Assembly: GCA_043750895.1 (NCBI GenBank)
Contig: JAYVAS010000633.1
Coordinates: 1-37,392 of the forward strand
Source: Pseudomonadota bacterium
Lineage (GTDB): Bacteria; Myxococcota_A; UBA796; SXON01
DNA length: 37,392 nucleotides
Reading direction: 5' to 3'
Shown: piece by piece, positions 13,826 through 16,199 of the stretch
Position numbering within the stretch: the stretch's first letter is position 1
Layout of the letters: each line of letters starts with the position of its first letter
Translations under genes and position numbers: made by a program
Notes under the pieces: generated by a model
Databases searched by the model: none
Told to the model about the DNA's origin: nothing
The model's input: only the letters and a program-made list of their open reading frames with translations

Positions 13826-15448
13826 ATGCAGCCCCAGCCGGCGCGGCTCTTGTTCTTTCGCGGGGCGGCGGCCGACGACGACGTCGCGCTGTTCGTCGTC
13901 CGCCTCCGAAACACCCGCACCCGCATCGGCCGGGTACACGACTGCGACGTGGTGCTCCCTGACGACGAGGTGAGCCGCTCCCACTGCGTGATCGACCTCC
14001 GCGACGGAGGGTACGAGCTGACCGATCGATCCAGCAACGGCACCTTCCGAAACGGCGAGCGGGTGCAGCGGGCCCTGCTCGCCGACCGGGACCGCATCCG
14101 GATCGGCCCGTTCACCGCGGTGGTGGACCTCAAGGGGGACGAGTACGCGCCGCCCACCGAGGTCGCCCAGCCCGAGCGTCGGGACGAGGAGCTCGTGGAC
14201 GCCGGCGAGGAGCTCGCGGTCGCGGAGGCCTGGCTCACCGTGCTCAGGGGGCCGGGGGAGGGGCTGCGGTTTCGGTTGAAGGGGAGCCGGGTGTCGGTCG
14301 GCGGCGCGGACAGCAAGGTGGTGCTGCCGGACCCGGGGTTGGTCAAGGACCACGTGATCGTGCGGCTCAACAGCGGTCGGACCATGGTGGAGCCGGGCGA
14401 GGGCGCGGCCTTCCTGGGCGCCACGCGCGTGCGGGACACGCTGCCCGTCCTCCCCGGGGAGGACATCCGGGCCGGGTCCACGGAGTTCAGCGTGACCTGG
14501 GACACCCGGTCCGAGGCGCCGCGCGCCGACAAGTTCGGCGAGATGGTCGGTTCCGGGGAGGCGATGCAGCGCGCGTTCGGCATGCTGCGACGCATCGCCG
14601 CCCACCACGCCCCCGTGCTGCTGCTCGGCGAGTCCGGTACGGGCAAGGAGCTGGCCGCGCGCGGGGTACACGACGCCTCGCCGCGGGCCGGCGCGCCGTT
14701 CGTGGCGCTGAACTGCGGCGCGATCAGCCCGACCCTGTTCGAATCGGAGCTCTTCGGGCACGAGAAGGGCGCGTTCACCGGGGCTTCCGAGCGGCGCGAC
14801 GGGGCATTCCACCGCGCGCACGGCGGCACGCTCTTCCTCGACGAGATCGGCGAGCTTCCCGAAGCGGCCCAGGCAAAGTTGCTGCGCGCGCTGGAGTCTG
14901 GGGAGGTGCGCCGGGTCGGTGCCACGGACCCGACCTTCCCCGACGTACGGCTGGTGGCGGCGACGAACCGGAACCTCATCGAGGAGGTCAAGAAGGGCGG
15001 CTTCCGGGGGGACCTGTACTTCCGCCTCGCGGTGCTGGCCGTGCGGCTCCCGCCCTTGCGGGAGCGCCCCGAGGACATGCCGTTGCTGGCCGAGGTGATC
15101 GCCGAGCGCATCCACCGCAACATCCGGATCACCCCCGACGCGATGGCCGTGCTCCGAGCCCACAACTGGCCCGGCAACGCCCGCGAGCTGCGAAACGTGC
15201 TCACCCGGGCCTTCGTGCTGACCGGACCGGTCATCGACGTCGACGCCCTCGTGTTCAATCCGCTCGAGATGGATCCACTCGCCGCGGGCGAGTCCAGCAC
15301 CCGCAGCGTCATCGAGGATGCCGAGCGGGACATCGTGCTGGACGCATTGAAGAAGTGCGGCCAGAACCGCAGCCAGGCCGCGAAGATGTTGGGCGTGCCG
15401 CGGTCGTCGTTGCTCTACAAGCTCCGCAAGTGGGGCGTGGACGGGTAG
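13826..15448 (+). CDS. Sigma54-dependent enhancer-binding protein with two FHA domains (second degenerate)
   Basis: FHA motifs IGR...VSRSH...[44 protein letters not shown]; Fis-type HTH ([20 protein letters not shown]). Confidence 0.92.
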
Positions 15449-15453
15449 GTCGG

Positions 15454-16104
15454 TCACGCGAGCGCCCGCCGACTGGCGATGCTCACCCAGCGGTCCCCGG
15501 CGATCACGAGGTGATCGGCCAGGCTCACATGAAGGGTCTGGGCGGCCCGGGACACCCGGTCGGTGAGGGAGAAGTCCTCGGCGCTGGGCTCCGGATCCCC
15601 GCTGGGGTGGTTGTGGGCGAGGATGATCTGGTGGGCGCCGACCTGGACGGCGGGGCGGAGCACCATGGCTGGTTCGAGCACGGCGTAGGAGTCGGTGCCG
15701 ACCGACAGGCGCCGCGCCGCGACGGGTCGGGCGCGACGGTCCAGGTAGAGGGCGTGCACCTCCTCGACCGCGAGACCCCGGAAGCGGGGGACCAGCAAGG
15801 CGGCGGCAGCGTCGGGTCGGGTCACGGGGCCGCTCGGGGGGAGCCCGCCGCGACCGGTCCGGAGGCCCAGCTGCAGCGCCGCGTGGAGGCGCACGGCACG
15901 CGCGTCGCCCACGCCACGGACCCGGGCCAGGGCGGCCGGCGGAGCCTGCGCCAGGGCGAGCGTGGACCCGAACTCCTCGAGCATCGAGAACGCGATGGTG
16001 CGTGCGGATTGGCCCCGAACGCCCGTGCCGAGCACCAACGCGAGGAGGTCGGAGTCGCCCAGGTCGTGGGCGCCGTTGAGGAGGTAGTCTTCGCGGGGCG
16101 GCAT
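15454..16104 (-). CDS. radC: RadC (JAB/MPN domain) protein
   Basis: ATG 16104; GAHDLGDSDLLALVLGTG N-terminus; HhH VRGVGDARA; E..HNHPSGDPEPSAED..DHLV. Confidence 0.92.
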   Translation of the reverse strand: MPPREDYLLNGAHDLGDSDLLALVLGTGVRGQSARTIAFSMLEEFGSTLALAQAPPAALARVRGVGDARAVRLHAALQLGLRTGRGGLPPSGPVTRPDAAAALLVPRFRGLAVEEVHALYLDRRARPVAARRLSVGTDSYAVLEPAMVLRPAVQVGAHQIILAHNHPSGDPEPSAEDFSLTDRVSRAAQTLHVSLADHLVIAGDRWVSIASRRALA

Positions 16105-16115
16105 GCCGGCCCCGG

Positions 16116-16131
16116 AGCAAGGGGCGTGCCA
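16116..16131 (-). promoter_or_regulatory. Sigma54 (-24/-12) promoter for radC
   Basis: The minus strand reads TGGCACGCCCCTTGCT, matching the consensus TGGCACG-N4-TTGCW. Confidence 0.8.
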
Positions 16132-16163
16132 TCGGACCGACGCGGGGAATTCCTGGTGTGGGT

Positions 16164-16199
16164 GACGGACGTCCGTCGGGGGGTGACGGACGTCCGTCA
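16164..16199. promoter_or_regulatory. Two tandem perfect palindromes, putative enhancer (activator-binding) sites
   Basis: GACGGACGTCCGTC at 16164-16177 and 16185-16198, a 21-bp period. The second extends to the 16-bp TGACGGACGTCCGTCA. Confidence 0.65.

Follow-up and report, generated by a model that had tools for sequence, protein, structure and literature searches.

A tandem palindrome before sigma54 promoters of radC, comEC, comM and a second ssb: a candidate enhancer regulon for DNA uptake and recombination in Myxococcota

The radC locus and its promoter

We analysed a stretch of 37,392 nucleotides (the window: positions 1 to 37,392 of contig JAYVAS010000633.1, assembly GCA_043750895.1, GTDB lineage Myxococcota_A; UBA796; SXON01) from a 5.76-Mb genome, G000, that is spread over 896 contigs, has 71% GC and is 88% complete. 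The window carries radC behind a sigma54-type promoter and a pair of identical palindromes, and, convergent with radC, a gene for a sigma54 activator with FHA domains. Site and promoter occur together, in helical phase, at radC, comEC, comM and a second ssb of related genomes; control genes are without the pair. Behind the site very probably lies a real sigma54 enhancer regulon. With somewhat less assurance, and judging from sequence comparison, we favor the reading that the tandem palindrome is a sigma54 enhancer that switches on genes of DNA uptake and recombination and is read by the adjacent FHA activator. The features in question are these:

15454..16104, minus strand: radC (Pfam; NCBIfam TIGR00608 over cut-off), predicted to be leaderless and a regulon member
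16116..16131, minus strand: sigma54 -24/-12 promoter, TGGCACG-N4-TTGCT, a consensus match, conserved at the radC genes of relatives (the training set)
16163..16178, no strand: promoter-proximal 16-bp palindromic site, a putative enhancer, centre about 40 bp from the GG
16184..16199, no strand: promoter-distal perfect 16-bp palindrome, centre about 61 bp from the GG
13826..15448, plus strand: sigma54 enhancer-binding protein (FHA, degenerate FHA-like, AAA+ with GAFTGA, Fis-type helix-turn-helix (HTH); from Pfam and motifs), the candidate master activator

On the minus strand TGGCACG occupies 16131-16125 and TTGCT 16120-16116, which places the nominal +1 at 16105, one base before the radC ATG (16104-16102); no Shine-Dalgarno (SD) sequence stands in the 11 bases preceding the ATG, which itself aligns with SD-led starts of orthologues. 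These positions are as an earlier, sequence-only reading of the locus had given them. That reading had also put two identical palindromes, 21 bp apart, about 60-95 bp upstream of +1, and we find GACGGACGTCCGTC at 16164-16177 and again at 16185-16198, at that spacing and 59-93 bp upstream. The natural unit is 16 bp, TGACGGACGTCCGTCR, written more fully as TGACGGACGTCCGTC(A/G).

Distribution of the site in the genome

The exact 14-mer is present in 7 copies at 5 loci of the genome, where order-5 and order-3 Markov models predict 0.12-0.20 copies and the reversed control pattern has none. All 5 loci have a -24/-12 element downstream of the site on one side, the one at C661 being a TTGA variant. 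A palindromic matrix built solely from the radC upstream regions of relatives returned 10 sites at 5 promoters at a score of at least 18, and these are the same 5 loci; five column-shuffled matrices returned 0-3 sites and no promoters. The genome-wide scan proposed by the sequence-only reading gives five loci, each with a sigma54-type promoter. Of the genome's 119 strong sigma54 sites just 5 (6 at a looser cut) carry the palindrome, which is therefore no general attribute of such promoters. The pilA gene of this genome has a sigma54 site with a different upstream array, adjoining a receiver-type activator, and lacks the palindrome.

Of the other targets in this genome, the one at C661 is an alpha-amylase-family lipoprotein, that at C41 a small secreted protein, that at C59 a TPR-like protein and that at C810 a beta-sheet-rich protein; the C72 target is probably a lipoprotein. 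Pfam returned no match for the C41, C59 and C810 targets. The predicted structure of the C59 protein (pLDDT 75) is an all-helical TPR-like solenoid and that of the C810 protein (pLDDT 61) a large antiparallel beta-sheet protein, neither model having a Foldseek match at E<=0.001. A family could not be assigned to the C810 protein, for which VIA-align gave only tied barrel matches (best Z 10.5, root-mean-square deviation 5.0, 227 aligned). This protein (C810:14835-16523) and its homologues (L036, L046, L053, L078, L087, L090) are about 450-580 aa long, with a low-complexity N-terminus and a conserved N-x-A motif that, to our eye, presumably recalls contractile-injection cargo; if C810-type proteins are such cargo, the regulon would couple attack with DNA uptake. 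Elsewhere in the genome (C67, C70, C177, C465, C893), several genes for large repeat-containing proteins that are paralogues of one another have upstream a repeated sigma54-like site and, after it, a G run.

Regulon promoters frequently lie at or near contig ends (C168:1-60, C130:1-60, and several comM, comEC and ssb loci of relatives). Repeated sites may break assemblies, and regulon membership may be undercounted for that reason.

Targets and controls in relatives

The exact site is present in 16 of 41 genomes (13 of 24 in the family, 2 of 2 in one other family and 0 of 14 in the rest), at 0 to 18 copies per genome; the reversed control pattern is seen in 2 of the 41. We examined 47 exact-site loci from relatives, a subset of those listed and with radC excluded, and at 36 of them a sigma54 score of at least 9 falls on one side of the site and none on the other. 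Their recurrent first genes are alpha-amylase-family lipoproteins (6), C810-like genes (6), comM (5), ssb (4), genes resembling the tyrosine transposases of repetitive extragenic palindromes (REP; RAYT-like genes, 4), comEC (3), C59-like genes (3) and small HTH genes (3).

A gene-by-gene test required intact 5' ends, a sigma54 score of at least 9 and a site score of at least 10; it left out five comEC loci lacking the 5' end, one comM without an alignment, and two low-scoring best ssb matches (G031, G037) as probable housekeeping copies. In the family, radC has the sigma54 promoter in 21 of 22 cases, 18 of them with the site, and in other families of the order in 12 of 13, 3 with the site, counts that are circular because radC regions trained the matrices. 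The remaining genes were not used in training. For comEC the promoter is found in 17 of 17 (11 with the site) within the family and 11 of 13 (4) in other families of the order, for comM in 20 of 21 (14) and 11 of 13 (3), and for the second ssb in 21 of 22 (17) and 5 of 5 (4); since related genomes are not independent, such counts show conservation and not a significance level. The radC promoter is kept in 33 of 35 relatives overall. The sequence-only reading had suggested a wider regulon and a motif kept in relatives, and both expectations hold: the site and promoter also stand at comEC, comM and the second ssb of relatives, and the site is kept at orthologous radC promoters (18 of 22 in the family).

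The controls behave differently. The pair of sigma54 promoter and site is found at 0 of 20 housekeeping ssb genes and at 0 of 20 comEA loci of about 8 kb; dprA has a sigma54 site in 4 of 30 cases and the palindrome in 0 of 30, and comF has the palindrome in 0 of 5. The shared cis-element thus unites comEC, comM, radC and ssb in relatives and is lacking at comEA, comF, dprA and this genome's pilA, the first three of which were tried as regulon members and set aside. In 27 of 30 same-order loci comM and recA are no more than 1.5 kb apart, and in the one locus checked a DUF3006 gene separates them; the comM promoter thus likely reads into recA.

Some arrangements at single loci stand apart. At the comEC starts of G015 (L139) and G021 (L140) a near-perfect site lies over the first codons, downstream of the promoter, where it could be a downstream enhancer or a repressive site. 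The alpha-amylase-family lipoprotein has the site in 7 genomes (C661:737-2356; L049, L055, L063, L069, L079, L085), and the -12 element of its promoters is often a TTGA variant. G018 has two related genes of 280 aa (L076, L080), without a Pfam family, behind the site and a leaderless-type sigma54 promoter; we take them to resemble Rpn/DUF4351-type proteins.

Helical phasing of the sites

At 67 promoters other than radC, 104 sites cluster with their centres at 40, 50, 60-61, 71, 82 and 94 bp from the GG. The phasing resultant is 0.68 at a period of 10.5 bp and drops to 0.34 when each distance enters only once; periods of 8 and 13 bp give 0.04 and 0.11. Tandem sites are typically 20-21 bp apart. 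The arrangement is that of a sigma54 promoter with an enhancer, a conserved -24/-12 element at the gene start preceded by tandem palindromes on one helix face, and the 10.5-bp phasing fits enhancer looping to the sigma54 polymerase.

Such phasing would not be expected of a REP-type repeat. One could otherwise hold that the palindromes are REP-like repeats spread by a RAYT-like HUH protein and have no regulatory role, given that the number of sites per genome varies so widely (0 to 18) and that four exact-site loci precede RAYT-like genes (E 3e-7 to 8e-13, below the family cut-off). The copies are not scattered without regard to promoters, as REP copies would be: they stand on one side of a sigma54 promoter, and they persist at orthologous promoters although their own sequence diverges. 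Nor was a RAYT-like homologue found in this genome. We regard the REP-like account as highly improbable and as already largely refuted by the phasing. The RAYT-like genes themselves, found in four genomes (L050, L060, L066, L084) under the site and a leaderless-type sigma54 promoter, look like targets because they have their own sigma54 sites; the product is possibly a domesticated single-stranded DNA enzyme within the regulon.

Purpose of the regulon

We consider it likely that the regulon serves DNA uptake together with recombination. Against this reading we have to set several observations besides the circularity and non-independence described above. The absence of the site from comEA, comF, dprA and pilA means that the set falls short of a complete competence regulon. 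For several recurrent targets (the alpha-amylase-family lipoprotein and the TPR-like, beta-sheet and small secreted proteins) no tie to DNA is known. The genome of the window adds little at the central genes: a strong sigma54 site precedes the second ssb (C168) at 4 bases from the contig end, which leaves the region upstream off the contig; comM (C130) has lost its 5' end at a contig end; and comEC was not found in this 88% complete assembly. Among radC, comEC, comM and ssb, the shared element is therefore fully testable in this genome at radC alone.

The same targets could be read as serving feeding or genome repair and not gene exchange, in that after the lysis of prey or siblings DNA would be imported as nucleotides and glucans degraded while RadC, ComM, Ssb and RecA protect the replication forks. 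The alpha-amylase-family lipoprotein, a target in 7 genomes, suits this proposal, as does the position of dprA, comEA and comF outside the regulon; a nutritional reading of cytoplasmic competence genes has been argued for CRP-S regulons in the available text of one study (PMC1635313), and the accessible part of a sigma54 survey classes RadC under repair (PMC12316311). The first genes of the 47 loci, on the other side, include no nuclease or nucleoside-salvage gene. A comM linked to recA and a dedicated second ssb are tools of recombination and are not needed if DNA is food. Feeding or repair would be compatible with the same switch, and we hold this to be an unlikely, if serious, account of its purpose, which we continue to read as uptake with recombination.

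The FHA activator as candidate reader

The protein encoded convergently with radC has an AAA+ domain (PF00158, E 1.8e-64) with a GAFTGA loop and, in its translation, the Walker A/B motifs GESGTGKE and LFLDEIG, and a C-terminal Fis-type HTH (PF02954 at 496-536) whose helix is conserved in orthologues. In the first FHA domain the motifs for phospho-Thr binding, GR, SRxH and S[NH]G, are kept; other families often have H in place of the N. The second FHA-like stretch, among the orthologue rows listed, has GG for GR and neither SRxH nor NG. The domain order FHA-FHA-AAA-HTH that had been read from the sequence therefore stands for the first FHA, the AAA+ and the Fis-type HTH, which Pfam recognizes, whereas the second FHA is degenerate.

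A single copy of the activator is found in 24 of 24 genomes of the family and in 14 of 16 others of the order. Of the 22 family genomes in which radC is complete, 17 have the two genes next to each other in convergent orientation. Its nearest protein clusters are mostly from Myxococcota, and in a tree from which a motif filter had removed a few rows its orthologues form one clade (0.99). The sister clade (0.89), whose recognition helix resembles that of the activator, contains tandem-FHA activators from Myxococcaceae and two same-class families. From its clusters and its sister clade we would place the genome in an uncultured lineage akin to the myxobacteria. Exact sites are present in 15 of 21 genomes whose helix starts RSS and in 1 of 18 others, and a tree made with the helix left out places the RSS family f5 away from the main family. 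We judge from these comparisons, at somewhat better than an even chance, that the FHA activator reads the site.

This assignment also has evidence standing against it. The activator is adjacent to radC in 0 of 11 genomes of other families that have both genes, so that the synteny raised by the sequence-only reading exists within the family and not beyond it. G040 (90% complete) has sites, and an activator orthologue was not found there; G038 has only a fragment of the activator, at a contig end; of the activator misses in the phylum sample, two are genes split over contigs. In G134, G229 and G232 sigma54-type sites stand at comM or radC, and the matches from these genomes that entered the tree fall outside the activator clade. 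With only 3 independent pairs, the covariation of helix and site is not significant (sign test p 0.5; p 1 once a score cut-off is applied). About ten further activator groups are shared by 4-5 of the 5 fully compared genomes.

On the grounds of several of these points one might suppose that the regulon is real and that the palindrome is read by a different conserved sigma54 activator or by a non-AAA co-regulator, the adjacency of the FHA gene and radC being an old rearrangement in one family. Set against them, no other activator stands beside radC in 30 loci. A receiver-type activator does lie about 2 kb from comEA in 3 of 20 loci, yet comEA there lacks the site. Outside the main family, exact sites occur solely in the separate family whose helix is identical, and the Myxococcaceae sister clade pairs a similar helix with a repeat that has a GACGG core. 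A different reader seems to us improbable, though far from negligible, and the FHA protein remains our candidate. The receiver-type arrangement near comEA was seen in one genus (L634, L635, L636), where comEA is convergent with the activator and itself has no sigma54 site.

The genes on the far side of the activator may bear on its input:

12662..13813, plus strand: tgt (Pfam), 12 bp upstream of the activator gene and linked to it in relatives
10984..12546, minus strand: kinase-like protein (no HRD/DFG) with a four-Cys insert and a PP2C Ser/Thr phosphatase (NF033484 over cut-off; weak kinase match, E 0.002)

The tgt gene is probably co-transcribed with the activator. The kinase-like part of the fusion is a degenerate fold whose match is to LIM kinase. 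In this genome and in 7 of 12 relatives (its own and three other families) the gene is close to the activator, mostly with tgt separating the two, and the fusion of kinase-like part, four-Cys insert and PP2C near tgt and the activator is conserved across the order. Its linkage fits a phospho-Thr switch. Given the motifs of the first FHA and this linked gene, Ser/Thr phosphorylation (a phospho-Thr) is an input that we would neither favor nor disfavor.

Other features upstream of radC

Two further features lie upstream of the radC promoter:

16209..16215, minus strand: CTTGACG, a possible third half-site (CTTGAYR recurs at relatives' promoters)
16221..17360, minus strand: AlkZ-like gene (Pfam), local to this genome and outside the conserved unit

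CTTGAYR occurs 40-110 bp upstream of the promoter at 15 of 33 radC, 14 of 26 ssb, 10 of 31 comM and 5 of 28 comEC genes, counts made without a chance control. The AlkZ-like gene, which among 30 radC loci sits between lgt and the radC enhancer solely here, looks like a recent insertion.

The sequence-only reading had named transcription of radC solely by read-through from the AlkZ-like gene as the case that would overturn it; the promoter match would then be incidental. The AlkZ-like gene is on the same strand and its 3' end lies 117 bp upstream of radC, and a search of the radC surroundings found no sigma70 promoter or terminator-like site. Because the gene is present in only 1 of 30 radC loci, that of the window, read-through from it is not general; the gene upstream of radC in G013, G012 and G022 is a divergent lgt, and the radC promoter is conserved across relatives as described. 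We give the read-through account very little credence.

Leaderless starts

In this genome, an ATG falls at nominal +2 to +5 behind 10 of 62 strong sigma54 sites, against a background of 1.7% per site, and an SD precedes 0 of these 10 short-leader starts versus 15 of 20 at longer-leader promoters. Among relatives an ATG falls at nominal +1 to +6 (peak +3) in 14 of 33 radC, 24 of 28 comEC, 0 of 31 comM and 0 of 26 ssb genes. An SD is present in 1 of 14 radC genes of the short class versus 14 of 19 of the long class, and in 3 of 24 comEC genes of the short class. Leaderless sigma54 transcripts, which had been expected to be unusual, are on these counts a recurrent predicted class. The radC gene of the window is probably leaderless or nearly so, and we infer that radC and comEC are often made as leaderless mRNAs. 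As predicted from these starts, the class is lineage-wide and not specific to radC or to the regulon.

The same genes with different repeats in other lineages

Beyond the order, a sigma54 site precedes comM in 4 of 5 genomes of the same class and in 21 of 40 others of the phylum, these 45 having been picked from the higher-ranked matches to spread across families. At a score of at least 10 the palindrome is found at 0 of the 45 comM loci, several of which show other repeats. In Myxococcaceae (the family of G228), 27 of the 29 radC loci that matched best have a sigma54 site, both misses being contig ends, and comM has one in 6 of 6. Upstream of Myxococcaceae radC and comM the pattern CCRTCY...RGAYGG is present in 16 of 33 cases versus 0.12 expected, the pattern having been read post hoc from the same data; this repeat shares its GACGG core with the palindrome. 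At the comEC start, six Myxococcaceae genomes showed no convincing sigma54 site, which counts against the proposal. In G229, radC, comM and comEC each have three or four CCGCCACCC repeats before a weaker -24/-12 element (sigma54 scores 11.5, 7.8 and 8.0). That the same genes share a different enhancer in G229 argues for selection on their co-regulation. The sigma54 arrangement at these genes is older than the palindromic site.

Relation to known regulons

In the Sxy/CRP-S competence regulon of Haemophilus influenzae and other gamma-proteobacteria, radC, comM, rec2/comEC and ssb are core members, and there as here one shared upstream palindrome unites these genes and phylogenetic footprinting was used, according to the available text of that study (PMC1635313). 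In that same text CRP acts with Sxy at a single site in each promoter and the members extend to com, pil and dprA genes (PMC1635313), whereas here tandem phased sites precede sigma54 promoters and comEA, comF, dprA and pilA stand outside. The Sxy/CRP-S regulon proper was considered and rejected, since the shared site here is YGACGGAC-GTCCGTCR before sigma54 promoters and not CRP-S with its TGCGA core. In Legionella pneumophila, RocC/RocR silences comEA, comF, comEC, comM and radC, as stated in the accessible portions of two papers (PMC6744872, PMC12378983). Like the set described here this is a small co-regulated one, with three of five genes shared (comEC, comM, radC); it differs in that RocC/RocR is post-transcriptional small-RNA repression and not AAA+ enhancer activation, and the set as listed there is without ssb or recA.

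ComK is a switch of competence regulons in Firmicutes. The ComX/sigmaX and sigmaH systems, so far as the available texts describe them, are similar to ours in being dedicated switches for late competence genes that include radC and a second ssb (ssbB) (PMC12378983, PMC3364868). The Firmicutes switches are sigma70-family sigma factors or ComK and respond to peptide signals, with no sigma54 and no enhancer. The regulon described here works like the CRP-S, RocR and ComX regulons and is a member of none, since its site, sigma factor and activator differ.

In Myxococcus xanthus, Jelsbak and colleagues reportedly described in 2005 an FHA sensor on sigma54 AAA+ activators, proposed a link from Ser/Thr kinases to sigma54, and are said to have studied these activators for fruiting-body development. 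Natural transformation of M. xanthus has reportedly been described too. Our literature searches found no link between the FHA enhancer-binding proteins of M. xanthus and DNA-uptake genes. The PexR regulon of that species, in the text available, likewise combines a sigma54 activator with tandem palindromic sites conserved across Myxococcota (PMC12754779). It differs in governing peroxide defence genes through a CACCG-core site, and its leaderless transcript comes from a sigmaA-type promoter (same source).

The searches, which were judged from the openings of abstracts and did not cover subscription journals or bioRxiv supplements, returned no sigma54 competence regulon. We take COG2003 to be RadC. 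A survey of sigma54 regulons by position-specific scoring matrices, in the parts accessible, found COG2003 enriched for sigma54 promoters and filed it as DNA repair (PMC12316311); its text and supplements, the figures not being covered, mention no comEC, comM, competence, enhancer site or activator. PMC3162934 does not mention radC, comEC, competence or FHA.

Proposed mechanism and implications

By analogy with NtrC-type activators, dimers of the activator would bind the two 16-bp sites and then oligomerise, and the oligomer would loop to the sigma54 polymerase and open the promoter with ATP. As weaker suggestions, the first FHA would gate the activator through a phospho-Thr partner, and the linked kinase-like/PP2C protein would possibly reset that gate. 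With the regulon on, radC, comEC, comM with recA behind it, and the second ssb would be expressed. Because the pilin, comEA, comF and dprA lie outside, the switch would gate the inner-membrane channel and the cytoplasmic processing steps. Phylum-wide, we suggest only tentatively, and with rather less than even confidence, that a tandem-FHA activator turns a Ser/Thr-phosphorylation signal into expression of comEC, comM-recA, radC, the second ssb and lineage-specific feeding or attack proteins.

To our knowledge, the switches known for competence are CRP/Sxy, ComK, sigma70-family factors or small RNAs. Most bacteria carry comEC, and the signal that triggers uptake is known for almost none, as the accessible text of one paper puts it (PMC6744872). 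A sigma54 enhancer system would supply, for an entire phylum, a class of promoter, a site and a candidate activator, and would, if the proposal is true, be a new class of competence switch across that phylum whose enhancer sequences co-evolve. Because Myxococcaceae, which include a standard laboratory model, keep the promoter at radC and comM, the idea is directly testable: if it is true, an activator without its FHA region would switch on transformation in a culturable myxobacterium. The starts described above also point to a recurrent predicted class of leaderless sigma54 transcripts. Finally, in these bacteria radC goes together with comEC and comM in yet another independent lineage, a point of relevance to what RadC does.

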